Below are positions 32,897 to 57,112 of a stretch of DNA of 64,000 nt, piece by piece. The stretch lies in the NCBI GenBank assembly GCA_037441425.1, contig JBBISF010000004.1:10215-74214 (forward strand), read 5' to 3'. The DNA is from Verrucomicrobiia bacterium (GTDB taxonomy: Bacteria > Verrucomicrobiota > Verrucomicrobiia > Palsa-1439). Within the stretch, counting starts at the first letter, position 1. Every line of letters begins with the position of its first letter. Made by a program: the position numbers and the translations under genes. The notes beneath the pieces are model-generated. The model did not search any database. It saw only the letters and a list, made by a program, of their open reading frames with translations, and was not told where the DNA came from.

Positions 32897-33835
32897 TTGC
32901 CGAATATGGGTGGATGGCGTATGCTGGCCGCCGTCTTGTTCGACATGGAAACCGCAGGACACTTTGCCAGCACCGCCGTCGCCACACCGCCGTTCGCCAA
33001 GCGAGCCATGCGCGCGATCTGGTCGGTGTTGCCGCGGTGTGCTCTCAGTTACAACTTGGGCAAGCTGGTGACCCGGACGTTACTCCGGCCATCCGCGACT
33101 ACATGGCCGGTGTTGGAACGATTTGGTGGGAAGTGCCCCATGGTGTTGGACCTCGGCAGCTTTGTCGCGAATGATCTTTATTGTCTGGATGATCATTATG
33201 AGGCGGTGACGCTCCGTTTGTGGCGCCGTTTGGCCCGACAATCCCGGACGATCCTCGATGTCGGCAGTCACATCGGGACTTTCGCGTTGGTTGCGGCTGC
33301 GGAAAACCAAGCGGCACGCATCATCGCCGTGGAAGCAACGAGTGGACACTTCACAAGTCTCCGGCACCATAGTGCCGCGTTTCCCAACGTCATTCCTGTG
33401 CAGGCTGCTATCGCCGACCGGGCGACGGAAATGTGGTTTTGCGCTGACGGAAGCAATGATGGTGGTGGCTATCTGAGTGTTGAACGCCCCCCGGGTGTCG
33501 AATGCCAGCCGGTTGCCACGCGCACGCTGGAGCAGCTTTGCGCCGAGTACGACATCGGCCAGTTGGATTTGATGAAGTTGGATGTGGAAGGGTTTGAGCA
33601 CAAGCTCTTGGCGGAGGACCGTGAATTTTGGCGTCGGCACGCCCCGACGCACCTGATTGTGGAGATCACCAGCGACCGCCGCAATTGTGGCCCGACGAAT
33701 GAATTGTTCCGCGCGATGGCGCGTCGTGGCTATCGCGCCCAGCGCGTTCAAGGATTGTATACGGTCCCATGGGGTAAGCCCGAGGCGCTGGCCAACTGGC
33801 ATTTTACGCGTGGGGAGGCGGCCAGCGCGCGTTGA
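32897..33835 (+). CDS. FkbM-family SAM-dependent methyltransferase
   Basis: ILDVGSHIGTFAL...LMKLDVEGFEHKLL matches the FkbM domain signature. Confidence 0.7.
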   Translation: MPNMGGWRMLAAVLFDMETAGHFASTAVATPPFAKRAMRAIWSVLPRCALSYNLGKLVTRTLLRPSATTWPVLERFGGKCPMVLDLGSFVANDLYCLDDHYEAVTLRLWRRLARQSRTILDVGSHIGTFALVAAAENQAARIIAVEATSGHFTSLRHHSAAFPNVIPVQAAIADRATEMWFCADGSNDGGGYLSVERPPGVECQPVATRTLEQLCAEYDIGQLDLMKLDVEGFEHKLLAEDREFWRRHAPTHLIVEITSDRRNCGPTNELFRAMARRGYRAQRVQGLYTVPWGKPEALANWHFTRGEAASAR

Positions 33836-34956
33836 TGCCAGAGCTACGGCCCAAGCGGATCATGGTGTTTTGTCTCTCGGGTTTGGGAGATGCCATCCTG
33901 GCGTCGGCGGCGCTGGCGGCGCTGGCCGCGCGTCCCGATCAGTTCCGCCTGACGCTCTTGACGATGTTTAGAAGTGTTAAGGAGTATCTGGACGACCAAC
34001 AGTTCACACCGGATGTTCGCTTGATCCAGTTTCTCGGAATGTCCAAGTGGAATATCTTCCACCATGCTTGGCCATTACGAAAAGAGCAGTTTGACGTCAG
34101 CGTGTTGCCATATGCAATGAACCGGCTGGGATATAATCTGATGAGTCGGGTCGTGGGGGCACGTTACCGGATCGGTTTCCGGTATCAACGGCAGTTCATC
34201 ATCAATGCCCCAGCGCTCAATCAGTGTGTAATTGATGAAGATCCGTCGTTGCACGCGGTGCAAGAGAACCTGCGTTGGGCATCGGTGCTCTGCAACACGG
34301 GAGTTGACGCGTTGCCGGATGAGTTTTCATACCGGATTCATCCGTCCGCAGTGACCGCTGCGGATGCGTATCTCAAGGAACATAAATTAGATCAGGCAGC
34401 GCCGCTTATCGGCATCCATGCCGCCTGCAATTCACTCAAGAACCAACACTGCCGCTGCTGGCCACCGATTCGTCTCGGCGAGTTCATCCGGCGGTTTCGC
34501 GAGCAAACGCCGGGGGCGCGCTTTATCTTGTTCGAGGGGCCAAGCGACCAACAGATGAACGAAGCCGTGGTCGTGGCTGCCGGTCCGGCATCAGGGGATA
34601 TTGTCGTCGCCAAGATGTTACCCCTGCGTTTGGTTGCGGCGCTCGTAAAGCGTTGTCACCTTTTTCTGAGCAACGATTCCGGTATGATGCACACGGCGGC
34701 GGCCTGTAAAGTGCCTTGTGCGTCCATCTTTGGGCCGACGAATCCAGCTTGGGTGCGGCCTTGGAAGACCCAGAACATTATCGTTAGCCGACAACTGCCG
34801 TGCAGCCCTTGTTTTTACTACTCCAGCCGGCCCTTGGTGTGTCCGGCTCACCTGGATTTTGCCTGTGTGCGTGACATCGCTGTGGACGACGTTCTCAACG
34901 CCGTCCAACAACTGCTCGCTCAAACTCATGTCCACGCAATCCCCGTCCAAACCTGA
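33832..34956 (+). CDS. Glycosyltransferase family 9 (heptosyltransferase-like)
   Basis: LSGLGDAIL...LFLSNDSGMMHTAAACKVPCASIFGPTNP are GT9 hallmarks. 4-nt overlap with the FkbM gene. Confidence 0.75.
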   Translation: MMPELRPKRIMVFCLSGLGDAILASAALAALAARPDQFRLTLLTMFRSVKEYLDDQQFTPDVRLIQFLGMSKWNIFHHAWPLRKEQFDVSVLPYAMNRLGYNLMSRVVGARYRIGFRYQRQFIINAPALNQCVIDEDPSLHAVQENLRWASVLCNTGVDALPDEFSYRIHPSAVTAADAYLKEHKLDQAAPLIGIHAACNSLKNQHCRCWPPIRLGEFIRRFREQTPGARFILFEGPSDQQMNEAVVVAAGPASGDIVVAKMLPLRLVAALVKRCHLFLSNDSGMMHTAAACKVPCASIFGPTNPAWVRPWKTQNIIVSRQLPCSPCFYYSSRPLVCPAHLDFACVRDIAVDDVLNAVQQLLAQTHVHAIPVQT

Positions 34957-37357
34957 GCTGCGTCAGGTCGGTCTTTGGATTACGCTGACAGCGGCGCTGG
35001 TGTATTGCGGGTGGCTGGGGTGGCACTGGTTGTCGCTGGGGTATAGCGACAAGGAACTGGCGGGATTTGTCTCCCGGGTCTGGGACATCCAACGGTCGCT
35101 GGCCGGGCATCACGGGCTGCCGTGGTGGACGCCGTGGTTCATGGGCGGAGCCAGCTACGGATTGGATTACTCCCATGGACTGTACCTGATTCCCTGGCTG
35201 CTGCTGGCGACGATGTTCAGCTTGCCGGTGGCGGGCAAGCTTTGCGCCTTGATCGCCATCTTTGCGGGAACGGTGGCGATGTACTGCTGCGCCCGGTATT
35301 TTCTTAAGAACGACTGGGCGGCAACTTTGGCGGCACTGGTGTTTCTGTTGCATCCCGAGCAAATCATCCGTGCCGCCGGGGTCGAGCAAATGACGGTCAT
35401 CATGTGCTTGCCGTTCATCCCGCTGACATGGTGGTGGTTCGCGCGGGTGCTGGATACCGGCAAACTGCGGGACTCGTTTTGGTGCAGTGTCAGCGCGGTC
35501 TGCCTGTTGGGAATGGACCACCAACAGGCGCTCATCCAGTACATGTTTCTGGCCTGCTATTTCGTTTATTGGCTTTGGAGCAATGGGGCTGTGCGACGGG
35601 TCTCAGCCATCCGGATGTGCGGACTCATCGCCATCTTCACCGTGGGCCTTGGCGCGTTCTTCATCGTCACCAGATTTGTGGAGTCGCATTACATCAAACA
35701 GTCTTACGATGAGCCGGTGACGGATTTGCAGCGCAATTACGCGTTCAAGAGTCTGTTGGCGCTGGTGGACCGGGATGGCACGATCACCCGGCAAGCCATC
35801 CGCGGCGCGGTCGATGCCGTCAACGCCCGCGGCGGTGTGCGCAGCCAAGCCGAATTGACCCAACTGCAACGGCTGGCTGGTCTCCAGATTGATTCGCCGG
35901 AGAAGTACGCGGGCCTCGTGTTGTTGGCGGTGTTGACGATCACGATGTTGTTCAACCGGGATCGGGTGAACCGCCGGTTATTCTGGTTTTTCGTGGGCAT
36001 GTTGTTGGTGACGGTGATGCTGGCCAGCGGACGCAGCAGTGTGTTCAGCGCCAACTGGCAAACCTGGCAGGCGCTCACGTCGCTCGCCGGGGTGCCGGGA
36101 TTGGTCACGCGCGCGATCTGGTTGGCGTTGCTGACGATGGCGACGTTTCTCGTATTGTTCATCCATCGCAAGCTCACGACCACCCGGAAACGCATCTTTG
36201 CCGGCGGGGCGTTGCTGGTGTTTCTCTTTCTGCCAGCGTTCCACATCCTCGCCGTCGTGCCGTTCTTCAAGGAGTGGCGCGCGCCGTTTGTGTTTTATGA
36301 TTTGCCGGCGGTATTCTTCGGCGCACTGCTGGCCGGGTTTTTCGTGACGGATGGATTGCCGTCTGCATCGCCGGCGAAAGTGGTGGCCGGTCTCGGGTTG
36401 TTGCTGGTGGTGGATTACTGGCCGTATCAGCAACCGATGAAAATCAATGACGTGCCCGGACACACGTTCCAAAACTTGCGCGCCACCTACACAGCACTGG
36501 CCGATGATCGGGACTGGGTTAAGACCTATGCATTTTCAGGACGACCATTCCATTTGCTCGGTCCCCGGTGGAGCGATAAACCACAGGTATCGGAGACGTT
36601 TGACAGCCAAGCGTACCCGCCCGGAATGGGGTTGCTCATCCCGAACATGGGTGGCGAATTATTCAATCTGGTCGGCGCGCGCTATGTCGTCTTCGACAAG
36701 ACCGATCCCGGCGGCAACGCTCAACTCGCCAGCCAATTGCGGCAAGCGGATCCGGTGGTGACCGAGAACGAAGATTTTGTCGTCTTTCGCAACGCCGGCG
36801 CGCGACCATATCTGACGGCGTACCTGCGCGCCTGCGCATACTTGGGCGATTTCCGGCAATCGTCGCGGCTAGCGCTTACCTTGTCGAACAAGGGCTGGCC
36901 ATTGGTGCAAATCAATTCGCCCCAAGAAGCCGCCAGTTACGAACGGGTGTACGCCCCGCCGGCCGAAGCGCTCCGGTTCAGCGGCATCCCGAATCTATAT
37001 GAACTCCATCCCGATTCGCTGCCGCTGTTGCCGGCAACGTCGAGTGAGCCAGTCACCCTGACCAGTGTCCAGTTGCGCCGGGAGAGCAATTACCGGATCC
37101 ACATGGAACTGACTGTGCTGAGTCCCTGCACCCTGGTCATTGCCGAGAGTTACTATCCTTTCTGGCAGGCGACGGTGGATGGGAAACCCTCCGCAGTGCT
37201 GCGGGTTAACTGCGGTTTGATGGGCCTGTCATTGCCGGCAGGACAGCACAGCATCGAGATGCTCTTTCGGCCGCCGCGCGCCTACGCGGTGGCGGCTGGG
37301 GTCAGTGTGCTGACATTGGTGGCGGGGTTGATCCTTTCACGGCGCGGATCTCCATAA
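34928..37357 (+). CDS. Large polytopic membrane protein, YfhO-like GT-C glycosyltransferase candidate (copy 1)
   Basis: ~810 aa. More than 12 N-terminal TM helices, ~300-aa extracytoplasmic domain, terminal TM helix. Start taken at ATG 34928, overlapping the GT9 end. Confidence 0.45.
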   Translation: MSTQSPSKPELRQVGLWITLTAALVYCGWLGWHWLSLGYSDKELAGFVSRVWDIQRSLAGHHGLPWWTPWFMGGASYGLDYSHGLYLIPWLLLATMFSLPVAGKLCALIAIFAGTVAMYCCARYFLKNDWAATLAALVFLLHPEQIIRAAGVEQMTVIMCLPFIPLTWWWFARVLDTGKLRDSFWCSVSAVCLLGMDHQQALIQYMFLACYFVYWLWSNGAVRRVSAIRMCGLIAIFTVGLGAFFIVTRFVESHYIKQSYDEPVTDLQRNYAFKSLLALVDRDGTITRQAIRGAVDAVNARGGVRSQAELTQLQRLAGLQIDSPEKYAGLVLLAVLTITMLFNRDRVNRRLFWFFVGMLLVTVMLASGRSSVFSANWQTWQALTSLAGVPGLVTRAIWLALLTMATFLVLFIHRKLTTTRKRIFAGGALLVFLFLPAFHILAVVPFFKEWRAPFVFYDLPAVFFGALLAGFFVTDGLPSASPAKVVAGLGLLLVVDYWPYQQPMKINDVPGHTFQNLRATYTALADDRDWVKTYAFSGRPFHLLGPRWSDKPQVSETFDSQAYPPGMGLLIPNMGGELFNLVGARYVVFDKTDPGGNAQLASQLRQADPVVTENEDFVVFRNAGARPYLTAYLRACAYLGDFRQSSRLALTLSNKGWPLVQINSPQEAASYERVYAPPAEALRFSGIPNLYELHPDSLPLLPATSSEPVTLTSVQLRRESNYRIHMELTVLSPCTLVIAESYYPFWQATVDGKPSAVLRVNCGLMGLSLPAGQHSIEMLFRPPRAYAVAAGVSVLTLVAGLILSRRGSP

Positions 37358-38243
37358 TCGCCCCGGCACCGGCGAGCCAACTCAACAGGGCGAGCAATAA
37401 ACCGGGAACGGCCAGCACGGCAGCAAGCAAGATCATCACAATGCCCGATGGAGTCCAGATGTGTTCACGATCAGCGCCGGACAGCCAGTGCTGCAACAAA
37501 TAAGGCGGGAAGCCCAGCCGGTTCAGCGCGCTCTGCACCCAGCCGAAGGGATCGTATTCCCAGCTCACGGTTCGCAGTGTTTCGGCCCGCAACCCGGCTC
37601 GTTCCAACGCGCCCCGCAACGCGTCCGGCGTGAAGTGGCCGAGATGCCGGGGGACATCGAGATGTTGCCAGTGTTGCCGGGAAAAACGGAACTGCCAACT
37701 CGCCAGATTCGGCACGCCAATCACCAACCGCCCGCCGGGCTTGAGCAGCCGGGCGCAGGCTGCCAAGCGTTCCCGCGGATCCGGCAGGTGTTCCAGGACT
37801 TGGTTCATCACGATTAGATCGAATTGTGGTTCGTCGCCTAGAGTGCCAAGTGCGCCCACCCGGACGTCCAACCCATGCTGGTCGCGCGCAAACGCGGCGC
37901 TTTCCTCCGTGCGCTCCAAGCCGGTGACCTGCCAACCGTGATCGCGCAGCGCGGCGAGCATCCAGCCGTGGCCGCAGCCGATTTCCAAAGCCTGGCCGGT
38001 ACCGCGTTCGCGCGTCCAAGCCCGGACACGCCGGCGGTGGATGAACCGAAAGAAACGCAGGATCAACGGATGATAGGCCCGGTAAGAGGCGGGGTAATAC
38101 GCATCAAGACTCGCGGGTGGCGGCCACACGAAAACAAATCCGCACGGCTGGCACCGGTGGAGGGCGAACGATTGACCGGTTACGTGATCGCGGGCATCGA
38201 GGAAATGCCCGGTCTCCTCCGCATGACAAAGCGGGCAGGTCAT
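37302..38243 (-). CDS. Class I SAM-dependent methyltransferase with N-terminal Cys4 zinc-ribbon
   Basis: CPLCHA...CQPCG ribbon, then LEIGCGHGW methyltransferase motif I. ATGA overlap with the upstream GT2. Confidence 0.7.
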   Translation of the reverse strand: MTCPLCHAEETGHFLDARDHVTGQSFALHRCQPCGFVFVWPPPASLDAYYPASYRAYHPLILRFFRFIHRRRVRAWTRERGTGQALEIGCGHGWMLAALRDHGWQVTGLERTEESAAFARDQHGLDVRVGALGTLGDEPQFDLIVMNQVLEHLPDPRERLAACARLLKPGGRLVIGVPNLASWQFRFSRQHWQHLDVPRHLGHFTPDALRGALERAGLRAETLRTVSWEYDPFGWVQSALNRLGFPPYLLQHWLSGADREHIWTPSGIVMILLAAVLAVPGLLLALLSWLAGAGAIMEIRAVKGSTPPPMSAH

Positions 38244-39151
38244 GGTCGCGGATGATTGTAGTGCGACAGTTTCCAATCCACCACGCTGAGCGGCCGGGCG
38301 ACCTGATCCTTGTAGGTCCGCGCCAGATAAATGCAAATGACCATCAGGAAGAACGCGACGTAGATAAAATCGAGCGCCACCAACCAGTGGAACTTGTCAT
38401 TGATGACCAACGCGATGTTCAGCGCGATCAGCAACGGGAACGCGTACACCGACAACCGCAGCGGGAACGTGGATGAGCTGAGGATGCCGGCCACGGCAAA
38501 GACGATGGCGCGCCAAAGATTGTAGTGGGTCTGGCCGATGATGCGTTTCTGCCGGGAGTAGGGGATGCCTTTGCGTTGGAACCCAACGTGGGCGACTTCG
38601 GTGCGCAGAAACGGGAACGTGGAATGGTTCGCCAAAATCGCGTCGCGCACCGGGGCGGAGACGAGAAAGAACTCCGCCATGTCGAGGACAATATCGCTGT
38701 CGGCGACCAGGCGGTTCAACCGGTAGAACGCCTTGCGCGCGAGTTGCCAGGGAAGCGGTTCAGGACGCTCGTCGCGCCGCCCATAGACGATGTCGTGGCC
38801 GGCTTCCCATTCGGCGATGAACTGGGGAATCATTTCCGGCGGGTCTTCGCAGTCCACGTCAATGATCGCCACCGCCGCGCCGCGCGCGTGGCGCAGACCG
38901 GTGGCGACGCTGGCTTCGTAGCCGAAATTGCGCGAGAGCGTCAGCACCTGCACCTGCGGGTTCTGCTCTCGGAGTTTGAGAATCGCCGACAACGTCCGGT
39001 CGGCGGAGCGGTTGTTGGTGAAGATCAACTCGAAGTCATACCGGTTGGCCAGCGGCGCGAGGGCCTTCTGCAACCGCTCATAAAACAACGGGATGGCTGT
39101 CTCTTCGTTGAACACCGGACAGACGATCGAAATCAACTGACGCTCGCTCAT
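38240..39151 (-). CDS. GtrB/ArnC-like GT2 polyprenol-phosphate glycosyltransferase (two C-terminal TM helices)
   Basis: ISIVCPVFNEE, DVDCEDPPE (DxD). Two TM helices at the C-terminus as in GtrB. ~304 aa. Confidence 0.75.
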   Translation of the reverse strand: MSERQLISIVCPVFNEETAIPLFYERLQKALAPLANRYDFELIFTNNRSADRTLSAILKLREQNPQVQVLTLSRNFGYEASVATGLRHARGAAVAIIDVDCEDPPEMIPQFIAEWEAGHDIVYGRRDERPEPLPWQLARKAFYRLNRLVADSDIVLDMAEFFLVSAPVRDAILANHSTFPFLRTEVAHVGFQRKGIPYSRQKRIIGQTHYNLWRAIVFAVAGILSSSTFPLRLSVYAFPLLIALNIALVINDKFHWLVALDFIYVAFFLMVICIYLARTYKDQVARPLSVVDWKLSHYNHPRP

Positions 39152-39930
39152 GATAGGTGTTGCCGCCACCAGTTTATCGTTTCGCGCAAGCCGGTGTCGA
39201 GATTGTAGCGAGGCCGCCAACCGGTGGCGAGCAACCGGGTGTTATCAGCCACGATAGGCAGCGGGTCGCCGGGAGCGTAGGGGCGCGCGCCAAACTTGAG
39301 CAGTTCCGGTCGTCCGATGATCGCGCCAATCTGACCGGCCAGCGCGCGGACGGTGATCGGCTGGCCGCTGCCGATGTTCACGGCCCCGGTGAGATTGCTT
39401 TCCGCGACGGCGACGATGGCCCGCGCAACATCCTCCACGTGCAAGAAGTCGCGGACCTGTTCGCCGGGGGTTAGTTCTGCCGGTTGGCCGCGCAGGAGTG
39501 ATTGAATGATGTACGGCACCAGCCGTCGCGGGTCTTCGCGCGGACCATATTGGTAGAACAACCGCGGCCAGGCAACTGGCGTGTCGAGTTGCTGGAGCTT
39601 CTCAAAGAGTTCCAGTTTGCATTGCGCGTAGAGCGTGGTGGATTCACGCTCGATACAGGTGCCAATGGCAACAAAACGTTGGGTGTTGACTTCCTGGGCC
39701 AAGCGAAGACTGGCGGTAACCCATTGCTGGTTCAGTGGTGAGTCGAGGTACTTACCGGGTTCGGCGTACCACGCGAGGTGAAGGCAGATATCGAACTGCG
39801 AACGCGGAAAACGGAAACCAGGCGAGAGCAGATCGCGGCCGAGGGTGGTCACTTCGTGACCGGCCTGTTCCAGTACAGCGGCGACGTGGAAACCGATAAA
39901 GCCGGTGGCGCCGGTGAGCAGGACTTTCAT
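39148..39930 (-). CDS. NAD(P)-dependent sugar epimerase/reductase (short RmlD-like 4-ketoreductase candidate)
   Basis: MKVLLTGATGFIGFHV Rossmann N-terminus. 260 aa. Coupled between the RmlC-like gene and the GT2 gene. Confidence 0.65.
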   Translation of the reverse strand: MKVLLTGATGFIGFHVAAVLEQAGHEVTTLGRDLLSPGFRFPRSQFDICLHLAWYAEPGKYLDSPLNQQWVTASLRLAQEVNTQRFVAIGTCIERESTTLYAQCKLELFEKLQQLDTPVAWPRLFYQYGPREDPRRLVPYIIQSLLRGQPAELTPGEQVRDFLHVEDVARAIVAVAESNLTGAVNIGSGQPITVRALAGQIGAIIGRPELLKFGARPYAPGDPLPIVADNTRLLATGWRPRYNLDTGLRETINWWRQHLS

Positions 39931-42642: not shown

Positions 42643-42645
42643 GGT

Positions 42646-44307: not shown

Positions 44308-44428
44308 TGCCTTGGGATGGGGCTGGGGAGACAGGAGGATTTCTATAGGGCCAAAACAAACAAAACTACCCGGCGAATTAGGGCGCTTTGCGGTTGAATT
44401 TTGAACGAAGGGCAACTAACTTGCGCGC

Positions 44429-48457: not shown

Positions 48458-48484
48458 GAACACAGCGAATACAATCCCGAGGCC

Positions 48485-49732: not shown

Positions 49733-50526
49733 AACGAATTGCCCGCTGCTTCGCATTACAAGTTAACGGTTTGTTGCCGTTTCTCTATCCGTTGTGCCAT
49801 GTGGTTCGACGGGGTAATTGGTTCCGTGGCGTGTATCGTTACGGTCGTGACTATCGGCGTTACCGGATGGCAGAGCGCTCCGGCGACCCATTTCCGTTAC
49901 GTTTTTTCAATACCTACCCGCAACTATTTGACCGGTTTGAGCCGGCGGGCAATGTTCCGCGCCACTATTTCCTGCAGGATCTGTGGGCTGCGCAAAAAGT
50001 ATTTGCGTCGCGCGTGCCGGTTCATTACGACATTGGTAGCCGGGTGGATGGCTTTATTGGGCATTGCGCGATATTTTGTCAGGTGGTCATGCTCGACATC
50101 CGTCCCCTCGCACTCAAAGTTCCCAACGTCGAGTTCCATCACGCCGACGCCACGGACATGAGTGATATTCCGAACGGAAGTATTCCTTCGTTGTCTTCGT
50201 TGCATGCCGTCGAACACTTCGGTTTGGGTCGGTACTGCGACCTGGTGGAGCCGGGAGCGCATGAAAAGGCGCTGCGGGAGATGATGAGGGTGTTAGCTCC
50301 AGGCGGTAACCTGTATTTGTCGGTTCCTGTCGGGCGGCAACGTCTGGAGTTTAACGCACATCGGGTATTTGATCCGGTTGGGATTCTCGAACTCTTGCCC
50401 AGCCTGAACCTGCAAGAGTTTTCGGTGATCGATGACGCCGGTGTATTGCGAGAGAACGTGCGGCCCGCAGAATACCGACAAGCCGGATACGCTTGTGGCT
50501 TGTTCTGGTTCTGCAAGTCTGTGTAA
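49729..50526 (+). CDS. SAM-dependent methyltransferase (DUF268-like)
   Basis: SLSSLHAVEHFGLGRY motif. ATGA overlap with the GT4 gene. Confidence 0.55.
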   Translation: MKRIARCFALQVNGLLPFLYPLCHVVRRGNWFRGVYRYGRDYRRYRMAERSGDPFPLRFFNTYPQLFDRFEPAGNVPRHYFLQDLWAAQKVFASRVPVHYDIGSRVDGFIGHCAIFCQVVMLDIRPLALKVPNVEFHHADATDMSDIPNGSIPSLSSLHAVEHFGLGRYCDLVEPGAHEKALREMMRVLAPGGNLYLSVPVGRQRLEFNAHRVFDPVGILELLPSLNLQEFSVIDDAGVLRENVRPAEYRQAGYACGLFWFCKSV

Positions 50527-50537
50527 GTTGCGAATAA

Positions 50538-51377
50538 TTGATGAACCGGACCGATTTCTTTGCCAGCGCCGAAGCCGTGATTCGAGAGACGATTGCTACA
50601 GTCAGTACTGTATACGGCAAATCGGGAAGCCACATTGATATTAGTTCTCCATCCTACCGGCGGCCGATCTTGGAGAGAATTTGGCGCGTGCTGTACGCAA
50701 ACGCGTGGCGCCCAGATGTAGGAAAACTCACGGTTCTTGATATAGGGGTGGGCAAGGGATGGAGTTCGTACTTGCTGGCTGCGCATTGCCGTCGGGTATT
50801 GGCATGTGATCTCTCCACTACCATTTCCGAGCAGATGGAATTGAATGACCAACCGCAGTGGCAACGCCTTCTCTGGAAGCACTTTGTTGCTGGTCGTCCA
50901 AATTTGGCTTACGTTTTTTTCGACGGGACAGCTTTGCCGGTGACGACCGAGTCAGTGGATCTCGCCGTTGCGGTGGCAGTCTTCGAGCATGTCGGCAACA
51001 ATACACTCGACCACACCGCCCGACGTGCTTGGTTGCGAGAGGTATCTCGCGTGCTCAAACCCGGCGGGCGGCTACTGATTGTCGCGTGTCCCAACCGTCA
51101 TTCCTATGCCGAAGCTCTCGCCCGCCTGCTGGGGTTGCCGCATCATACCAAGACGTTTTCCGGCAACGAAATGCGAATGCTCATCGAAGAGGCCGGGTTG
51201 GCAATCGAGGAGATTCAGTTTACCCACCCGTTTATTGATTTCTATCCGCTTCGCCTGATGCAACGACTGTGGTCGGTGTGCTACGGCTGTGGGATTCGCT
51301 TTGTTGAACCAGTTCTTGGGGTGCTACCGCTTCGCTACGTGTGGCATCACCATTGCGTAATTGCAGTTCGCAAGTGA
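50538..51377 (+). CDS. Class I SAM-dependent methyltransferase
   Basis: VLDIGVGKGW motif I, LKPGGRLLI motif. Confidence 0.65.
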   Translation: MMNRTDFFASAEAVIRETIATVSTVYGKSGSHIDISSPSYRRPILERIWRVLYANAWRPDVGKLTVLDIGVGKGWSSYLLAAHCRRVLACDLSTTISEQMELNDQPQWQRLLWKHFVAGRPNLAYVFFDGTALPVTTESVDLAVAVAVFEHVGNNTLDHTARRAWLREVSRVLKPGGRLLIVACPNRHSYAEALARLLGLPHHTKTFSGNEMRMLIEEAGLAIEEIQFTHPFIDFYPLRLMQRLWSVCYGCGIRFVEPVLGVLPLRYVWHHHCVIAVRK

Positions 51378-51387
51378 CGACAGCCGG

Positions 51388-53835
51388 TCAGGCGGACCGT
51401 CGCTTGTCGGCTACGGCTTGTAGCCCAGCAACACCAACGATGACCGATGCGAAACCGAGCGCAACCAAGTGGATGTAGATTGCCGTGGCTGGGCTTTGGT
51501 AACGAACCACTACTTCAGAGTGTCCGGCGGGAACAGGGACCGCATAAAGAATCAGGTCGGCGCGCACGGGCGCGACCGGGTGTCCGTTGACCGCTGCGTG
51601 CCAGTTTGCGTCGTAGCGGTCGTTGATCAATAGATAACCGGGCGTGGGGGCTTCGACCGCGGCTTCGATCCGGTTACCGGAGTAGCGTTGCAGATGAACG
51701 GTTCCCACCGCGTTGCCGGTCCCGCTCGGGGCGGTTGGGTGGTCGAGTAACAGCGTGCGGCGCGGGTCCCAATCGGCGGACGCTAGTCGGCGACTCAGTT
51801 CAGACTGATTATCGAAAACTTCGATTCCCGGCACAAATGTCGCCTTGGACAGGTAGTTCTTCAGAGTCACCACCGCGTGGGTCGCCTGCCAGGTATCGGT
51901 AACAGCGATCACCGTCAGGTCGTCTAATTTCGTGCCTTGCGCCTGGAAGAGCGCCACGCCGGTGATGTTGGTCTGCAATTCGGTCACGCGCTGAAGCTGG
52001 CTTAAGCCGGCAGCCGGTAGTGCCAGATACTTGACGCCGGCCAGTTGCCAGAGACGGATCGGATTGCTCTCCAACGCACTGAAGAACGCGAGGTAGTTGT
52101 CGGGCATTCGCGACGAGGCGGGAATATCAAGGGATGCAATCCGGTAGTACGGAAACACCGCGCTCAGGTAGTAGTGCAACAGACCATCTTGCGCGAGGAG
52201 TTTGACGCGCGCCGGTTCTGGATCGGCGCGGAGGGTTTCGATCAGCGGGTTGCTCCGGTACGCCGCGCGGAAGTTGAACGGTTCCAGATAGTGCGTGTGC
52301 ACCCAAAACATCTGGGCGACAACCAAGCCCGCCAACACGGGAATGCGGGCTGACGGTTTCGCCGCCACAAACCAGAGCAGCCCCACGACCGCCACAGTCA
52401 CCCCGGCGGCAAGACGGACAACACCCAGCGCGGCGGCAATTTCCGCCCGGCTATACCCTTGCGGCGCCAGCGTCTGCGGCAACCACGAATCCGCTCCCAG
52501 TGCCGCCAACAACACCAGGCCCGCCGCCGCGCTGACACCGGTCAGCAACCAGCGCCACCGTTGATTGGGTGAACCGTCCAGCCACATCTGCACACCATAG
52601 GCCGCCAGCACGGTCAGACAAAATCCGCCCGGCACCATGAATTTCAGCGGATTGCGCCACGTACCCATGTACGGGAGTTTGTAGAACAACCAGTAGAATG
52701 GCGCATACCGACCCAGCGCCAACAGGTAGCAGATGACCAAAGCCACGGTGAAGAACCGACCGTAGAACCGGCTATCGGTGTCGAGTAACTCCTCTGTGGT
52801 TGCATCCTTTTGGGCGGGCCGATTTCTGCGCCATAGCATCCACGCCCCGGCCAAGGCGAACACCAAAGCCACGGTGCCGAAGCTGTTGGCACTGATGGAA
52901 AAATTGCGGAATCCTTGATGGTCTTGCGCCCAGCCGGCTTGTCGGCCAATCCGTCCCCAGTACGGCCCATCCGGATCACCGCTGCGCCAGCCGAAAAAGC
53001 CGGGCACGAGATAATCCAAAGTCTCCGCGAACGGCAGACTCCACTGCGTCGCCCAATTCCAATGCTCTTGAGGGTTATCGCTGGCCACCTGTTTGACGCC
53101 GGTGATTTGCGTTTCAAGCATCGTTTGGAGCGTCGGCAACGCCACCAGTGCTGACATTCCGATAACCGCCAGCAACCGGCCGCCAAGCATCAGACTTTCC
53201 CGTCGCTCCCGCCGTAGCGCACGACCGATACCGGCCAGGAACAACGCGCCGACCAGCAAGGCCACCAACATTCCATGGTCGGGCTGGAGACAGATGTTCA
53301 TCCCTAAAATTGCGCCACAGACAATCGCCGCCCACCAATTCCGACTACGGATCGCCCGCAGCGCGGCACCGACGGCCAACGGCATCAGAACTAGCAGCGC
53401 CATGGGGCCAAAATGACCTGAGTAGATATTGCTAAGCAACGGTCCCTGCCACCCGTAGATCAACCCGCCGATGACGGCTGCCGGGCGCGCCAGTTTCAAT
53501 TCGCGCAACAGCCAATAGGCCGTCCCGACAGCCAGTGCGCCGCAGAGCGGATAAAATAGCGTGAAAAACCACCACACCGGCAAGTGCGCGAGGAGTGAAG
53601 TCGGCGTCAACGGTACCGGCAAATTCGGAAACCCGAGCCAATAATCATAACTCATGAACCCTTGCGGCGGGAACTGAAACCGCATCGCGCGATAGCTGCC
53701 CGGTGTGACGTCATTGGTCAGCGGAACGAATTGGCCGCCGGAGAAAAAGTAGCAGAGCCACAACTGCAACAGAAGCGTTCCGCCAGCAGCCAGTAACAGC
53801 CAGCGATTATTATGTTGCCCAACCGGTTTCTTCAC
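51388..53835 (-). CDS. Large polytopic membrane protein, YfhO-like GT-C glycosyltransferase candidate (copy 2)
   Basis: 815 aa. Many N-terminal TM helices, large soluble domain, terminal TM. 4-nt overlap with the upstream GT2. Confidence 0.45.
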   Translation of the reverse strand: MKKPVGQHNNRWLLLAAGGTLLLQLWLCYFFSGGQFVPLTNDVTPGSYRAMRFQFPPQGFMSYDYWLGFPNLPVPLTPTSLLAHLPVWWFFTLFYPLCGALAVGTAYWLLRELKLARPAAVIGGLIYGWQGPLLSNIYSGHFGPMALLVLMPLAVGAALRAIRSRNWWAAIVCGAILGMNICLQPDHGMLVALLVGALFLAGIGRALRRERRESLMLGGRLLAVIGMSALVALPTLQTMLETQITGVKQVASDNPQEHWNWATQWSLPFAETLDYLVPGFFGWRSGDPDGPYWGRIGRQAGWAQDHQGFRNFSISANSFGTVALVFALAGAWMLWRRNRPAQKDATTEELLDTDSRFYGRFFTVALVICYLLALGRYAPFYWLFYKLPYMGTWRNPLKFMVPGGFCLTVLAAYGVQMWLDGSPNQRWRWLLTGVSAAAGLVLLAALGADSWLPQTLAPQGYSRAEIAAALGVVRLAAGVTVAVVGLLWFVAAKPSARIPVLAGLVVAQMFWVHTHYLEPFNFRAAYRSNPLIETLRADPEPARVKLLAQDGLLHYYLSAVFPYYRIASLDIPASSRMPDNYLAFFSALESNPIRLWQLAGVKYLALPAAGLSQLQRVTELQTNITGVALFQAQGTKLDDLTVIAVTDTWQATHAVVTLKNYLSKATFVPGIEVFDNQSELSRRLASADWDPRRTLLLDHPTAPSGTGNAVGTVHLQRYSGNRIEAAVEAPTPGYLLINDRYDANWHAAVNGHPVAPVRADLILYAVPVPAGHSEVVVRYQSPATAIYIHLVALGFASVIVGVAGLQAVADKRRSA

Positions 53836-54545
53836 TTGTTAACCTCGCTCCGTCGAACCGCGCGCCACGTGCGCCAGGTGTCGCGGAAAATCTCGGCAAT
53901 CGCGCGCCAGCCCACGGCGCTGCCAAATTTCATCGTGTGATTGACCACCACCGGCGCCTCGGCCATGCGGGCGCCCAGTTTCACCAAGTGGACCAGCAAT
54001 TCAAGATCGAAGGCAAAGCCGGTCAGCTTGGTGTTGGCCAGCGCTTCGGTCAATAGTTCGCGCCGGACCAGTTTCAGACCCGTCTGCGTGTCGCGGACCG
54101 GCAACCCGAACAGACATTTCACCAGCCGGTAGTAGCCCCAACTGTATAGCCGCCGCAGCGCGGGATACTCGACGTTGCTGTCCGGGTGCATCTTGCTGCC
54201 GATGACGGCGTCGGCGTTGTGGGTTTTCTGCAGAATCAGGAACAACTCGATTTGCTCCGGTGGCAGGTCTAAGTCGGCGTCGAGAAAGATCACAAACTCG
54301 CCCCGCGCGGCGCGGGTGCCCTGGCGCAACGCCTCGCCCTTGCCGGCGTGCGGCAGATGCAGCACCCGGACTTCGGGAAGCTCGGCCGCCGCCGCGTCCA
54401 GCGCGGCCGGTGCGTCGTCCGTGCTGCCGTCGTCCACCGCCAGAATCTCAAATGGCCCCAAGGGACGTAACACGCCGGCCGTGTGCCGGAGATTCACCAA
54501 CACGTTCGGGCCTTCATTATAGACGGGCATGACGACGGACAACAT
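53832..54545 (-). CDS. GT2 polyprenol-phosphate sugar synthase (DPM1/CsbB-like, soluble)
   Basis: LSVVMPVYNEG, AVDDGSTDD, IFLDADLD motifs. 237 aa. Confidence 0.75.
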   Translation of the reverse strand: MLSVVMPVYNEGPNVLVNLRHTAGVLRPLGPFEILAVDDGSTDDAPAALDAAAAELPEVRVLHLPHAGKGEALRQGTRAARGEFVIFLDADLDLPPEQIELFLILQKTHNADAVIGSKMHPDSNVEYPALRRLYSWGYYRLVKCLFGLPVRDTQTGLKLVRRELLTEALANTKLTGFAFDLELLVHLVKLGARMAEAPVVVNHTMKFGSAVGWRAIAEIFRDTWRTWRAVRRSEVNK

Positions 54546-54558
54546 GGCTGTACCTATT

Positions 54559-55815
54559 CTATGAACCAGTCTTGACGGTTGCTGTCAACTGCCGCGTTGA
54601 ACGGGTCAACAAAGCCAACCCCGCCAACAGAGTCACTGCGCCGCAACCCCCAAGCTGGATCAGCCGCACTAATTCCGTGGCGGTTCCGCCGTACCACATC
54701 AGGACGCTGCTGTAGATGATCGCAAGCACGCCATAGCCGAGGCTCAACCCCAACCGGCGCGAGGCCAGCGCGTACGCGCCGGCGGCTTGCAGCAGTCCGA
54801 TGCCGAACATGGCCCGCGCAAATGCCGGCAACAACGCCGTCACCGGCTCTTCCACGCGTCCCAGCAACAGCCGGCACAGGAACGCATCGCTGTGTATCAC
54901 CGCCACCGCGCCCACCGCCAGCAGGCCCACGTAGAGCAACAACAACAGTTGCGCCGTCCGATCAGTGCGTTGTCGACCGGAACGCGCCGTGAACCAGACC
55001 ACCAGAACGGGGCTTGCCAGATACACCACCGCGCGACCGAACAACCCGGCCGCGCTGTACACGCCCAGCGCCGGCCCGTCCAAATGACGTTGCGCAATCA
55101 GCAGGTCCGATTGGAGGAACAGGAACTGCCCGCCCACGACCGCGAAGGCCGCCACCAGGAACAACAGAAACTCCCGTTCCATAACCGGCTGGATTGAGCC
55201 GGACAACCGGACCTGACCCCCATCGCGGCGCAACACCAAGCCCACCGCCAAAAGACTGCCCAGCAGCGAAGCCACGATGCCGCTTTCCGCCCGGGGCCAA
55301 ACCGCCACGATGCTGACGCCCAGCAAACGCATGGCGACGTTGGCCAGGCCCAGCCCGGCCAGAAAAGTGAATTGCCCCAGGCCCGCGCACCAGGCATTCA
55401 TCAAGCCGCCCCAGATTCCGGCCAAGGCCATCGCCAAAACCAACCCGGCCACCGTCACGCGTGGCACCTGAAAGAACCGCGCGGCCGGGTAGAGCACCAC
55501 CAACGCGAGCAGTGACACCACCACCGTGACGCGCAGCAAAAACGCGGCGCTGGCGGTCTTCAATTCGGCAACCCGCGGTTGGTCATCCACCGCTTGATGC
55601 CGGGCCAGATAATGGGTCACGGCCTGATTGGCGGCGGCCATCCCCAGCGACAACATGGCGGCCAGACTGAGCGCGGCGTTGAGGTACCCGAATTCGGCGA
55701 GCGGCAACAGGCGGCCCATCAACGCCTGAAACACATAATTGCCAAGCGCGCCCAACAAACTGGCCGCCGTCAGCACCGCGCTGCTGCGCCACCAGAATCG
55801 TTGTTCCCCAGCCAT
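54559..55815 (-). CDS. MOP-superfamily (Wzx-like) polysaccharide/lipid-linked oligosaccharide flippase
   Basis: ~12 TM helices throughout. Start taken at M46 (55815) of the track ORF. Confidence 0.65.
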   Translation of the reverse strand: MAGEQRFWWRSSAVLTAASLLGALGNYVFQALMGRLLPLAEFGYLNAALSLAAMLSLGMAAANQAVTHYLARHQAVDDQPRVAELKTASAAFLLRVTVVVSLLALVVLYPAARFFQVPRVTVAGLVLAMALAGIWGGLMNAWCAGLGQFTFLAGLGLANVAMRLLGVSIVAVWPRAESGIVASLLGSLLAVGLVLRRDGGQVRLSGSIQPVMEREFLLFLVAAFAVVGGQFLFLQSDLLIAQRHLDGPALGVYSAAGLFGRAVVYLASPVLVVWFTARSGRQRTDRTAQLLLLLYVGLLAVGAVAVIHSDAFLCRLLLGRVEEPVTALLPAFARAMFGIGLLQAAGAYALASRRLGLSLGYGVLAIIYSSVLMWYGGTATELVRLIQLGGCGAVTLLAGLALLTRSTRQLTATVKTGS

Positions 55816-55882
55816 ATCGGCCTGACTGTGTAAGCCAAAACCATTGCCGCCGCCAGAGTTTTCGTGTACAAGCTGGCCCACC

Positions 55883-57112
55883 ATGAAAATTGTTGTGGCG
55901 TACTCCGGCGGGTTGGATACCTCGGTCATTTTGCGATGGTTGAAGGACACCTATCAATGTGAAGTCGTCGCGTTTTGCGCCGACATCGGGCAGGAAGAAG
56001 AACTGACCGGCCTCGATAAGAAAGCGTTGGCCACCGGCGCGAGCCGGTTCTTTGCGCTCAACCTCGTGGAGGAATTCGCCCGCGATTTCATTTTCCCGAT
56101 GATCCAAGCCGGCGCGATCTACGAGAGCCAATACTTCCTCGGCACGAGCATTGCCCGCCCGCTCATCGCCAAGGCGCAGGTCGAGATCGCCCGGAAAGAG
56201 AAAGCGGACACCGTGGCGCACGGCGCCACCGGCAAGGGCAACGACCAATGCCGGTTCGAGTTGACCTATGCCGCGCTCGCGCCCGATCTCAAGATCATTG
56301 CGCCGTGGCGCTTGCCGGAATATCACAACCGCTTCAAGGGCCGGGCGGAGATGCTCGCGTATTGTCAGGAGCAGGGGATCAAGGTGGAAGCTAGCGCCAA
56401 GAAGCCGTACTCGATGGACCGCAATCTTCTGCACATTTCGTTTGAGTCCGGCATCCTCGAAGATCCGTGGAGCGAACCGCCAAAAGACATGTTCAAGCTC
56501 AGCGTGTCGCCCGAAGACGCCCCGAACCAACCGGAGTACGTCGAACTCGATTTCGAGTCTGGCATTTGCGTCGCCGTCAACGGCAAGAAACTCTCGCCCG
56601 GCAACGTCATGCGGATGTTGAATAAGCTCGGCGGCAAACACGGCATCGGCCGGGTGGACCTCGTCGAGAACCGGTTCGTGGGCATGAAAAGCCGGGGTGT
56701 GTACGAAACACCCGGCGGCACGATCCTGCATTTTGCCCACCGTCAGATGGAAACGCTGACGATGGACCGGGAAGTCATGCACCTGCGCGACTCGCTCATC
56801 CCGAAATACAGCGAACTGGTGTACTACGGCTTCTGGTTCAGTCCGGAACGGGAAGCGTTGCAGGCCCTCGTCACCGAGAGCCAGAAGAATGTCACCGGCA
56901 CCGTTCGCCTCAAGCTCTACAAAGGCAACGTCGTCACCGCCGGCCGCAAATCGCCGGTCTCGCTCTACAACCCGTACGTCGCCACGATGGAAGCCGACAA
57001 AGGCGCGTTCGATCAGACCGACGCCACCGGCTTCATCCGCCTCAACGCCCTCCGGTTGCGGACCCGCGCGGGCGTCTTGAAGTCGGGCAAAAAGACGCAG
57101 CCCTCCGCCTGA
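55883..57112 (+). CDS. argG: Argininosuccinate synthase
   Basis: [18 protein letters not shown]-PPase motif. Confidence 0.9.

Follow-up and report, generated by a model that had tools for sequence, protein, structure and literature searches.

The 23-kb glycan gene cluster of an uncultured Verrucomicrobiota bacterium, known from a MAG, probably encodes two multi-component transmembrane glycosylation systems, one GtrB/YfhO-like and one GacI/GacK/GacL-like, that decorate a cell-envelope glycan. The combination of a lipid-linked-sugar synthase with a membrane transferase, found here twice, is of a known general type, and the sugar handled by one of the two systems seems to be an unusual one with a methyl branch. 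The cluster lies in a window of 64 kb, the whole stretch of DNA that was analysed, and is flanked by a GH63/MGH1-like gene (29921–32692) and argG (55883–57112). Every gene that the initial annotation had listed between 32897 and 55950 was recovered in its place with Pfam and NCBIfam profiles. Position 55950 itself is the limit of the longest open reading frame; the Wzx-like gene more likely starts at 55815 (orthologues of 409 aa).

The cluster had been proposed to form one unit. The synteny comparison with related genomes that had been suggested to check this was conducted, and it instead splits the locus into a conserved module and a strain-variable island. The GT9–GT-C A operon, with or without FkbM, is conserved across Verrucomicrobiae together with a convergent 6-deoxyhexose operon. 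The island spans 43.5–55.8 kb and is inserted before argG; GC content drops at 43–45 kb and 48–51 kb relative to the flanks. A three-gene sugar operon is followed by argG at once in locus L097 and after ~1.8 kb in locus L144.

The plus-strand operon of the conserved module (32897–37357) opens with an FkbM-family SAM methyltransferase (32897–33835; PF05050 E 2e-15; TIGR01444 69.9 bits, above cut-off), which overlaps the following gene by 4 bp. Its orthologues (380–386 bits) adjoin GT-C A in loci L093 and L110. The second gene encodes a heptosyltransferase-like glycosyltransferase of family GT9 (33832–34956; PF01075 E 9e-24). Its top NCBIfam matches are LPS heptosyltransferases III and II at 68 and 63 bits, both under their cut-offs. 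Of the 41 informative metagenome loci, 24 have a GT9 gene upstream of the GT-C A orthologue. GT-C A (34928–37357, 809 aa) is a YfhO-superfamily membrane glycosyltransferase and is 100% identical to P0067. Nine hydrophobic segments, one of them C-terminal, appear in the protein, with an invariant D44 and an LPWWTP motif after TM1. The match to Pfam YfhO (28.1 bits, slightly under the GA of 28.5) is confined to the C-terminus, where weak NCBIfam matches to PgfM1 and PgfM2 also occur. Homologues from Verrucomicrobiae (~50% identity) carry precomputed PF09586 and often also PF10131.

Seven genes on the minus strand (43416 to 37302) form the convergent operon. The first encodes a glucose-1-phosphate cytidylyltransferase (42646–43416; TIGR02623 368.8 bits over the full length, above the cut-off of 300). 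The CDP-glucose 4,6-dehydratase-like SDR that follows (41662–42642) has its best match to TIGR02622 at 214 bits, under the cut-off of 278, and scores 176 bits against dTDP-glucose dehydratase. The third product is an NDP-hexose 3-C-methyltransferase (40433–41665; PF08421 and PF08484) with full-length matches to PDB entries 4RV9 (D-mycarose 3-C-methyltransferase, E 9e-100), 5T64, and 3NDI (TcaB9). It is a full-length homologue of the 3-C-methyltransferases of actinomycete dTDP-sugar pathways, whose solved members use dTDP-sugars in the making of antibiotics. An RmlC-like NDP-4-keto-6-deoxyhexose 3,5-epimerase (39927–40436; PF00908 E 3e-53; TIGR01221 147 bits, cut-off 155.8) and a short SDR (39148–39930; PF01370/PF16363), a putative NDP-4-keto-sugar reductase, come next. 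In 30 of 44 informative loci, an orthologue of the short SDR (280–340 bits) converges on GT-C A.

The operon had been described as ending in a GtrB-like GT2. This gene (38240–39148) is the sixth, and its product is a genuine GtrB homologue of the GtrB/PgfS/ArnC type of polyisoprenyl-phosphate glycosyltransferases. Synechocystis GtrB (5EKP) is matched over residues 6–291 with E 5e-42, and ArnC is second with E 2e-20. The best NCBIfam match is PgfS at 163 bits, for which the equivalog cut-off is 500. Two TM segments are located at the C-terminus. The family is abundant at 60–76% identity, under source names of polyisoprenyl-phosphate or dolichol-P-mannosyl transferase. The final gene (37302–38243; PF13489 E 8e-28), whose start shares 4 bp with the end of the GT2 gene, encodes a class I SAM methyltransferase with an N-terminal Cys4 motif and a single strong C-terminal TM segment as anchor.

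At the level of protein families, enzymes are present for CDP-glucose, its 4-keto-6-deoxy derivative, and 3-C-methylation. The set of cytidylyltransferase, 4,6-dehydratase, 3-C-methyltransferase, 3,5-epimerase, reductase, and extra methyltransferase would fit a CDP-6-deoxy-3-C-methyl-(O-methyl)-L-hexose, for which CDP-vinelose of Azotobacter vinelandii may be a parallel. We infer the donors, the methylation step, and the acceptor of both systems as follows. In the first system, CDP-glucose would be made, converted to the 4-keto-6-deoxy sugar, methylated at C3, epimerised, and reduced. The GtrB-type GT2 would load the branched 6-deoxyhexose onto polyprenol phosphate, and the membrane-anchored methyltransferase may O-methylate it while it is bound either to the nucleotide or to the lipid. 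Once flipped, the sugar would be passed by GT-C A to an acceptor on the periplasmic side. Since no GtrA-type flippase was found for this system, the Wzx-like protein may be shared or the flippase may be encoded elsewhere. The use of a CDP-sugar by a GtrB homologue is suggested only by the operon context and would be without precedent; the characterised GtrB-type enzymes considered here use UDP-sugars (PMC11127046).

The association of these genes recurs in relatives. An operon with the same seven genes, from cytidylyltransferase to methyltransferase, converges on GT9-(SDR)-GT-C A in L163, and a GT2-RmlC-SDR set converges on GT-C A in L166. The pair of GtrB-like GT2 and methyltransferase is found again in L163, L164, and L165; it is flanked by DUF2079 membrane proteins in L164 and accompanies C-methyl-sugar genes and a PMT_2 GT-C beside argG in L165. 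In L160 and L161, distant GT-C A homologues are preceded, at a distance of 4 bp, by a GtrB-like GT2.

The island begins with a gene missing from the earlier gene list, which encodes a predicted lipoprotein of 166 aa (43807–44307, plus strand; lipobox LTGC) with no Pfam match even at E 10. Its part in a glycosylation system is uncertain. An FNR-type flavin reductase (44429–45097, plus strand; PF00970 and PF00175, with BenC/MmoC-type reductase matches) is probably the electron donor for the adjoining B12-binding radical SAM enzyme (45097–46653, plus strand; PF04055 and PF02310). The latter, a putative methyltransferase or rearrangase, is BchE/HpnJ/HpnR-like with every score far under cut-off, and no solved relative was found in the structure search. 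In locus L080, a GT2 and a B-like GT-C again accompany its orthologue (370 bits). A GT2 with a hydrophobic C-terminal region (46650–47663, plus strand; PF00535/PF13632; MftF-like, 94 bits) overlaps the radical SAM gene by 4 bp, and in 9 of 80 genome loci a B-family GT-C is followed within 1.5 kb by a similar GT2. A GT2 of the soluble type follows on the minus strand (47624–48463; PF00535 E 1e-21); in many B-family loci, a homologue directly follows the Wzx-like gene. The plus strand then carries a GT4 glycosyltransferase with an uncertain start codon (48545–49732; PF13692/PF00534), a SAM methyltransferase (49729–50526; DUF268/Methyltransf_11, PF03269, PF08241), and a class I SAM methyltransferase (50538–51377; PF08241 E 2e-15). 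In all, the island carries two GT2 and one GT4 cytoplasmic glycosyltransferases and three or four more methylating enzymes, the FNR/B12-radical-SAM pair among them.

The second system is encoded on the minus strand at 51388–55815. GT-C B (51388–53835, 815 aa) is a divergent YfhO-superfamily membrane glycosyltransferase with full-length profile homology to PF09586 proteins. The alignment of GT-C A with the GT-C B family by hhalign gave a probability of 99.7 and E 1.3e-25 over 623 columns, and an invariant Asp after TM1 is common to both families. The two proteins match Pfam YfhO solely at the C-terminus. Profile comparison, together with the predicted model of GT-C B, places both of these >800-aa membrane proteins in the YfhO/GT-C superfamily, as first annotated, and not among transporters. 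The neighbouring gene encodes a soluble GT2 of 237 aa without a TM segment (53832–54545; PF00535 E 7e-29). All of its NCBIfam matches are weak: EpsD is best, followed by ArnC, PgaC, AglJ, PpgS, and Dol-P-hexose transferase. Among solved structures, ArnC (best) and DPMS catalytic domains are matched with generic GT-A similarity. The DPM-like GT2 of the initial annotation is generically of the GT-A type, and its candidate role as a polyprenol-P-sugar synthase rests on the 4-bp overlap with GT-C B. This pair is retained at 69–72% identity in L001–L005, and a DPM-like GT2 adjoins GT-C B in close relatives only (2 of 80 genome loci).

The third component (54559–55815) is a Wzx-type flippase of the MOP superfamily for lipid-linked sugars. 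The protein itself has no Pfam match; among 40 homologues, PF01943 appears in 17, PF13440 in 12, MatE in 4, and MurJ in 1, and orthologues at 52–54% identity bear PF01943. The earlier call holds at the level of the fold: in the AF2 model (pLDDT 94.4), the top Foldseek match is the WzxE lipid III flippase 9G9P (TM 0.70/0.72). In this system the soluble GT2 would make the polyprenol-P-sugar, the Wzx-type protein would flip it, and GT-C B would transfer the sugar.

The logic of donor synthase, flippase, and GT-C has direct precedents, among them variants that use a soluble GT-A and a flippase of the Wzx or MATE type (PMC8035078, PMC11127046). Described systems include CsbB/GtcA/YfhO and GacI/J/K/L, the latter with a soluble GT-A, a Wzx-type flippase, and a GT-C (PMC8035078). 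Like CsbB/GtcA/YfhO and GtrA/GtrB/GtrC (PMC8035078), the locus has adjacent genes for a GtrB-type GT2 anchored in the membrane by two C-terminal TM helices and for a YfhO-superfamily GT-C that combines a TM bundle with a large extracytoplasmic domain and a TM helix at the C-terminus. It differs in that no small GtrA/GtcA-type flippase was seen at the locus, the GT-Cs match Pfam YfhO at the C-terminus only, its host is a diderm PVC bacterium, and the GT2 lies within a CDP-6-deoxy-3-C-methylhexose operon, followed by a membrane-anchored methyltransferase. The second system groups a soluble GT-A synthase, a Wzx-type flippase, and a GT-C as does the Gac system, which adds the GlcNAc side chain of the Streptococcus pyogenes group A carbohydrate (PMC8035078). 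GacL is a PMT_2-type GT-C, whereas GT-C B is YfhO-like, and no small GacJ-like membrane partner was identified at this locus.

In Citrobacter youngae, a MATE flippase of the MOP superfamily likewise replaces GtrA, a periplasmic GT-C (GT136) with an extra extracytoplasmic domain acts on an undecaprenyl-P-sugar, and the lipid-linked sugar is modified before export, by an epimerase there and possibly by a methyltransferase here (PMC11127046). There, in contrast to the present locus, a UbiA-like synthase (PPPRS) rather than a GT2 forms the donor from PRPP, and pentofuranoses are added to a defined O antigen. In ArnC/ArnT, the sugar that a GT2 has linked to polyprenol-P is added by a GT-C to lipid A or core in the periplasm; an LPS acceptor is what we infer here. 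Among solved homologues, ArnC ranks second for the operon GT2 and first for the 237-aa GT2, and ArnT is among the fold matches. The GT-C family is YfhO-like here and PMT_2/ArnT-like there, and the locus holds no Ara4N or GalA biosynthesis genes. Rhizobium RgtE/RgtA-D also modify lipid A or the LPS core with a GT2-made polyprenol-P-sugar and periplasmic GT-Cs.

No Wzy, Wzy_C (WaaL), Wzz, or phosphoglycosyltransferase domain was found in the ORFs tested across the whole 64-kb window, in which a few ORFs lack any Pfam match. The claimed absence of Wzy, Wzz, and WaaL is thus borne out within the window, which covers 64 kb of a 75.9-kb contig; a Wzy, a WaaL, or an initiating transferase may be encoded elsewhere in the genome. 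This absence, that of an initiating transferase, and the conserved GT9 coupling make the LPS core or a lipooligosaccharide the best guess for the acceptor; the link to LPS is weak because the GT9 scores fall under the heptosyltransferase cut-offs. A protein or another polymer is possible. The YfhO/GT-C identity and the absence of Wzy, Wzz, and WaaL agree with the earlier proposal of decoration rather than polymerisation or ligation. They do not separate a monosaccharide decorator from an en bloc transferase, since the predicted model of GT-C B matches STT3/PglB and AglB as well as ArnT/AftD.

It is unlikely, though worth weighing, that the island's cytoplasmic GT2/GT4 glycosyltransferases, together with its methyltransferases, assemble a methylated oligosaccharide on undecaprenyl-PP, which the Wzx-like protein flips and on which GT-C B acts as an oligosaccharyltransferase, ligase, or polymerase (a functional analogue of PglB/PglL/WaaL/Wzy). 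Such a role would account for the missing Wzy and WaaL. Wzx proteins classically flip PP-linked oligosaccharides, and WzxE, the best Foldseek match for the flippase, moves a PP-linked trisaccharide. The stretch between the two GT-C systems carries several Leloir glycosyltransferases and methyltransferases, and distant GT-C B homologues occur with Wzx-like and soluble GT2/GT4 genes and no adjoining DPM-like GT2 in 16 of 80 genome loci. Against this, the window contains no initiating phosphoglycosyltransferase, the 237-aa GT2 overlaps GT-C B and is kept with it in close relatives, and no WWDxG-type OST motif was seen on reading the GT-C B sequence. Moreover, the donors of characterised YfhO-family enzymes are polyprenol-P-monosaccharides (PMC8035078; bioRxiv 10.1101/2024.05.05.592596), and Wzx- or MATE-type flippases have already been proposed for P-linked monosaccharides (PMC8035078, PMC11127046).

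Protein O-glycosylation, in which one or both GT-Cs modify Ser/Thr-rich stretches of proteins in the periplasm or outer membrane, as streptococcal PgfS/PgfM1 and GtrB/PgtC2 do, is rather improbable. YfhO-family enzymes have been shown to glycosylate proteins, and the PgfS match of the operon GT2 and the PgfM1/PgfM2 similarity of GT-C A point in this direction; in Streptococcus mutans, PgfM1/M2 are YfhO-domain GT-Cs (PMC5856776; bioRxiv 10.1101/2024.05.05.592596). The scores here are far under the equivalog cut-offs, GtrB and ArnC are comparable matches, and most loci couple GT-C A to deoxysugar genes and GT9, an LPS-core-type family. Adhesin genes are absent, no candidate acceptor protein is encoded at the locus, and the S. 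mutans sugar is GalNAc, which an epimerase helps to make.

An accidental gathering of unrelated glycan pathways in a recombination-prone island, in which the GT2/GT-C pairs are not functional pairs, would fit the great variation among relatives between the conserved module and argG, the uneven GC content (0.55–0.57 at 43–45 kb and 48–51 kb vs 0.60–0.63 in the flanks), and the Akkermansia GT-C B homologue, an orphan amid housekeeping genes, but is very improbable: start/stop codon overlaps join the genes inside each module, five independent contexts combine a GtrB-like GT2 with deoxysugar genes and a large membrane protein, of the GT-C type or another, and the order argG-Wzx-GT2-GT-C B is constant in L001–L005 while the downstream sugar genes differ.

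The genes located between the GH63/MGH1-like gene (29921-32692) and argG (55883-57112) were identified from the ORF listing together with Pfam and NCBIfam matches, and the glycan-related content given in the initial annotation was upheld. On the forward strand, an FkbM methyltransferase (32897-33835), a GT9 (33832-34956), and the large membrane protein GT-C A (34928-37357) follow one another with overlapping stop and start codons. Convergent to A is a tightly packed operon of seven genes on the reverse strand (43416 to 37302) in the order cytidylyltransferase, dehydratase-like SDR, 3-C-methyltransferase, RmlC-like epimerase, short SDR, GT2, and class I methyltransferase. The last gene, previously taken to be the GT2, is this methyltransferase, which carries a C-terminal TM helix. 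Beyond the operon are a predicted lipoprotein of 166 aa with the lipobox LTGC (43807-44307) and a trio of FNR-like, B12-radical-SAM, and GT2 genes (44429-47663). Next comes a GT2 located on the strand opposite to that of the trio, followed by a GT4 and two methyltransferases. The second large membrane protein, GT-C B (51388-53835), is encoded on the reverse strand, as are a 237-aa GT2 (53832-54545) that overlaps it by 4 bp and, beyond this, a 418-aa multi-TM protein (54559-55815). The remaining genes of the window have housekeeping functions (rpoN, prs, L25, pth, L9, dnaB, bamA, skp, lpxD, clpB, and glnE). The source organism is known solely from a metagenome-assembled contig. The best-supported reading of these genes is that the locus encodes two putative multi-component transmembrane glycosylation systems.

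Matches of the two large membrane proteins to the Pfam YfhO family (PF09586) are confined to the last ~70 residues. Protein B scores 34.2 bits (GA 28.5) and covers only profile positions 756-827 of 835, and A scores 28.1-28.2 bits, just under the same GA of 28.5. Protein A, which is 100% identical to P0067 in the database, is part of a large family conserved at ~50% identity, in which most homologues have a precomputed PF09586 match and often PF10131 too. The relatives of B are few, with 66 matches and top identities of 72, 66, and 49%. Full-length homology to recognised YfhO family members was obtained using hhalign, which aligned the B-family profile with 18 PF09586-matching proteins at a probability of 100 (E 5.3e-66, 724 columns) and the A-family profile with the B-family profile at a probability of 99.7 (E 1.3e-25, 623 columns). 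The conserved acidic residue of the first extracytoplasmic loop in GT-C enzymes is present in both proteins: D42 is invariant after TM1 of B (27 sequences) and lines up with the Asp conserved among the PF09586 proteins, and D44 is invariant after TM1 of A, together with an LPWWTP motif (23 sequences). In each protein a large extracytoplasmic domain is followed by a C-terminal TM helix.

Profile searches of the A and B families against PDB sequences gave no match. The AlphaFold2 model of B, built from a 27-sequence alignment, has a pLDDT of 91.3 and a pTM of 0.91. When this model was compared with the PDB using Foldseek, ranks 1-29 were all GT-C enzymes (AftD, STT3, PglB, AftA, ArnT, EmbA/EmbB, and PMTs), and the best-placed transporter was found with a probability of 0.21. 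The modeled core of B can be superimposed on solved GT-C enzymes, which places B in the GT-C_A class. A transporter identity for the large membrane proteins, the outcome that might have overturned the YfhO/GT-C call, is therefore rejected by the profile alignments, the fold of the B model, and the shared Asp after TM1. These homologies identify A and B as YfhO-superfamily GT-C glycosyltransferases that are distantly paralogous to each other. Among species-representative genomes the B family occurs in Verrucomicrobiota, and its more remote members come from Kiritimatiellae, Lentisphaerae, and Akkermansia. The window is accordingly assigned to a Verrucomicrobiota MAG, as are its nearest relatives. 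A B homologue of 33% identity is encoded in an Akkermansia muciniphila MAG (L007, 9926-12508), where no glycan genes were found nearby; its neighbours are a purN-type formyltransferase, tuf, nusG, and uvrD.

The GT2 of the seven-gene operon (38240-39148) was aligned with Synechocystis GtrB (5EKP) at an E of 5e-42, residues 6-291 against 28-327, and the next matches are ArnC and DPMS. Two C-terminal TM segments are predicted at 232-250 and 255-273. By homology, this enzyme is a clear member of the GtrB type. The glucose-1-phosphate cytidylyltransferase matches TIGR02623 with 368.8 bits (cut-off 300.25), and the dehydratase-like SDR has TIGR02622 as its best match at 214.5 bits, under the cut-off of 278.45. 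Over its full length, the C-methyltransferase is homologous to the D-mycarose 3-C-methyltransferase 4RV9 (E 9e-100) and also to the sugar 3-C-methyltransferase 5T64 and TcaB9. Because a 3-C-methyltransferase is encoded together with a cytidylyltransferase, a dehydratase, an RmlC-like epimerase, and a reductase, the predicted product of the operon should be CDP-6-deoxy-3-C-methyl-L-hexose, which could be O-methylated by the terminal methyltransferase. The composition is like that for CDP-vinelose in Azotobacter, a resemblance taken as a lead only; the literature search returned no paper on vinelose.

The initial annotation had proposed two GT2/GT-C pairs, and the pairing is sustained for system 1 (the GtrB-like GT2 and A) by the recurrence of its cassette. 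At the homologous locus L163, the genes NT-DH-CMT-RmlC-SDR-GtrB-like GT2-methyltransferase (NT, nucleotidyltransferase; DH, 4,6-dehydratase; CMT, C-methyltransferase) are convergent to GT9-SDR-GT-C A, and the GT2 is 76% identical. At L166, GT2-RmlC-SDR is convergent to GT-C A. At L165, GT2-MT-NT-CMT-RmlC-MT-SDR (MT, methyltransferase) is divergent from a PMT_2 GT-C beside argG, and at L164, GT2-MT-SDR has a DUF2079 membrane protein on either side, and CMT and RmlC genes are nearby. A distant A homologue at L160/L161 has a GtrB-like GT2 4 bp upstream. Comparative gene order thus gives good evidence that the GtrB-like/methyltransferase/deoxysugar cassette is recurrently associated with a large polytopic membrane protein, in most cases of the GT-C type, as donor synthase to transferase, with an exchangeable partner. 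The DUF2079 proteins of L164 (8494-9912 and 12821-14320) may represent a further GT-C-like family of acceptor-side transferases.

For system 2, the pairing is supported by the 4-bp overlap of the 237-aa GT2 with B and by its conservation, which is limited to close relatives. Of 80 genome loci that encode more distant homologues of B, just 2 have a DPM-like GT2 immediately upstream, 16 contain a Wzx-like gene, and 9 have an MftF-like GT2 no more than 1.5 kb downstream. The 237-aa GT2 is soluble and has generic GT-A similarity only, its weak top matches including EpsD, ArnC, AglJ, PpgS, and Dol-P-hexose transferases; a role as polyprenol-P-sugar synthase is inferred from gene context. The adjoining 418-aa protein has no Pfam match even at an E of 10. 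Among 40 of its homologues, 17 match Polysacc_synt, 12 Polysacc_synt_3, 4 MatE, and 1 MurJ, and none matches a Wzy-type family. The model of this protein has a pLDDT of 94.4 and is nearest to the lipid III flippase WzxE (TM 0.70/0.72), followed by MATE and MurJ structures, and orthologues at 52-54% identity contain PF01943. These homologue families, the model fold, and the orthologues confirm, at the level of fold, the earlier assignment as a Wzx-like flippase. This Wzx-fold protein adjoins system 2. System 1 appears to be without a flippase of its own, since none of the ORFs tested in the window is GtrA-like.

In the synteny comparison, the locus, which had been described as a single unit, was resolved into a widely conserved module around A and a variable stretch on the side of argG. 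The module was examined in 58 metagenome loci with a strong A match. A GT9 is located upstream of A in 24 of 41 informative loci, with a GT4 in its place in 10, and a short-SDR orthologue (280-340 bits) is convergent downstream of A in 30 of 44, usually with a 4,6-dehydratase and a nucleotidyltransferase upstream of it. At L097, a three-gene sugar operon is directly followed by argG, and at L144 argG appears ~1.8 kb after the sugar operon; on this ground, the stretch at 43.5-55.8 kb is classed as an insertion or variable island. The GC content drops to 0.55-0.57 in two parts of it (43-45 kb and 48-51 kb), compared with 0.60-0.63 in the flanks. The 166-aa lipoprotein, for which no Pfam match was obtained even at E <= 10, is encoded where the conserved module meets this island; at L167, a DUF4440/SnoaL_2 protein is encoded close to a GtrB-like GT2.

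Loci L001-L005 all keep the gene order argG, Wzx, GT2 (234 aa), GT-C B; in them B is 48-66% identical, and the genes past B are entirely different in each. In L084/L086, from a relative with 68% identity, a 235-aa GT2 and a PMT_2-type GT-C make up the module next to argG, a position at which GT-C cassettes seem to be interchangeable. The PMT_2-type (ArnT-like) GT-C of L084/L086 and its GT2 (12697-15182) replace Wzx-GT2-YfhO-like B beside argG, as does a PMT_2 GT-C alone at L165 (6214-7815). Within the island, the B12-radical-SAM and GT2 genes have overlapping codons (45097-47663), as do those of L080 (4488-6817), which is from an unrelated MAG and in which a B-like GT-C follows the rSAM-GT2 genes. 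This recurrence suggests that rSAM-GT2 may be a functional pair. The trio was also considered as a hopanoid system of the HpnJ/HpnI type and rejected, with scores of 95 for HpnJ (cut-off 578) and 58 for HpnR (cut-off 650); its GT2 matched none of the glycosyltransferase models linked to hopanoids and has an MftF-like top match.

On the two-system reading, system 1 follows the GtrB/CsbB and YfhO design. System 2 follows that of a soluble GT-A, a Wzx-type flippase, and a GT-C, as proposed for GacI/J-GacK-GacL (PMC8035078). A MOP-family flippase is likewise part of the Citrobacter pentofuranose system, in which the undecaprenyl-P-linked sugar is modified prior to export (PMC11127046). The underlying glycan would be assembled and modified in the cytoplasm by Leloir glycosyltransferases (GT9, two GT2, and GT4) and by methylating enzymes (FkbM, the 3-C-methyltransferase, three class I methyltransferases, and possibly the B12-radical-SAM protein). 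The main rival to monosaccharide transfer is that B and the Wzx-like protein transfer a PP-linked oligosaccharide en bloc. The fold does not separate the two, since STT3 and PglB fit the B model as well as AftD and ArnT do. An ordinary Wzx/Wzy O-antigen or capsule cluster is disfavored by the gene content of the window, where the Wzx-like protein is the sole component. As had been claimed for Wzy, Wzz, and WaaL, the ORFs tested across the 64-kb window gave no match to a Wzy, Wzy_C/WaaL, or Wzz family, nor to a phosphoglycosyltransferase family, with zero matches to PF04932, PF14296, PF02706, PF02397, and PF00953. This negative result applies to ORFs other than 5924-7462, 11983-12717, 21878-22963, and 29236-30114 (244-512 aa), which are without a Pfam match and lie outside the glycan locus.

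The LPS core or LOS is our preferred guess for the acceptor because the host is diderm, with BamA and LpxD encoded in the window, because the coupling of a GT9 to A extends across the class, and because the window shows neither an initiating transferase nor Wzy, Wzz, or WaaL. The GT9 match is at the family level only: the best heptosyltransferase models give 68.5 bits (against a cut-off of 170) and 62.9 bits (against 134.6), and the gene does not qualify as an equivalog of the LPS inner-core heptosyltransferases WaaC/WaaF/WaaQ. Proteins too are glycosylated by YfhO-type enzymes. A more specific and rather improbable scheme is that the GtrB-type enzyme would use the CDP-6-deoxy-3-C-methyl-L-hexose to form a polyprenol-P sugar, that the adjacent anchored methyltransferase would O-methylate it at the lipid stage, and that the GT9-coupled A would transfer it, on the periplasmic side, to the LPS core. 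UDP-sugars are the substrates of those GtrB-type enzymes that PMC11127046 cites. If the scheme were true as a whole, it would provide the first CDP-dependent polyprenol-P glycosyltransferase and the first lipid-linked branched-sugar donor, in an LPS decoration system that is lineage-wide in Verrucomicrobiae, has an exchangeable GT-C partner (YfhO-like, PMT_2, or DUF2079), and adjoins a hypervariable island.

The logic of a lipid-linked monosaccharide donor, a flippase, and a GT-C is already well known, including the variant with Wzx and a soluble GT, and the gain is thus an extension and not a new principle. New are the Verrucomicrobiae setting, the conserved GT9-YfhO-like module with its adjoining hypervariable island, and the predicted placement of a GtrB-type synthase and a membrane-anchored methyltransferase inside a CDP/3-C-methyl-6-deoxyhexose operon, for which no description was found in the literature. 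A literature search on Verrucomicrobia LPS and O-antigen returned nothing on loci of this kind, and to our knowledge the envelope glycans of this group are almost unstudied. The widely conserved module of GT9, YfhO-like GT-C, and 6-deoxyhexose genes could mark the Verrucomicrobial outer-membrane glycan as a lineage signature, and the hypervariable island from the module to argG resembles a serotype locus in its behaviour. The route through a lipid-linked donor and a GT-C may reach nucleotide-CDP, C-methyl-branched, and O-methylated deoxysugars. The apparent swapping of YfhO-like, PMT_2, and DUF2079 proteins at one GtrB-like/methyltransferase cassette is relevant to the division of donor and acceptor specificity within GT-C systems.

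Elsewhere in the window, a 627-aa ORF on the forward strand (23354-25237) contains a trypsin-like peptidase fused to a WD40 beta-propeller. The 5' end of this ORF is overlapped by tRNA-Gly(tcc) on the reverse strand (23404-23477), and the annotated start is therefore probably too far upstream. The stretch at 57100-59300, covering ~2 kb past argG, has a lower GC content of 0.57 and contains only short ORFs without Pfam matches. The genes for tRNA-Lys (59298-59373) and tRNA-Leu (59540-59627) are located between this stretch and glnE.
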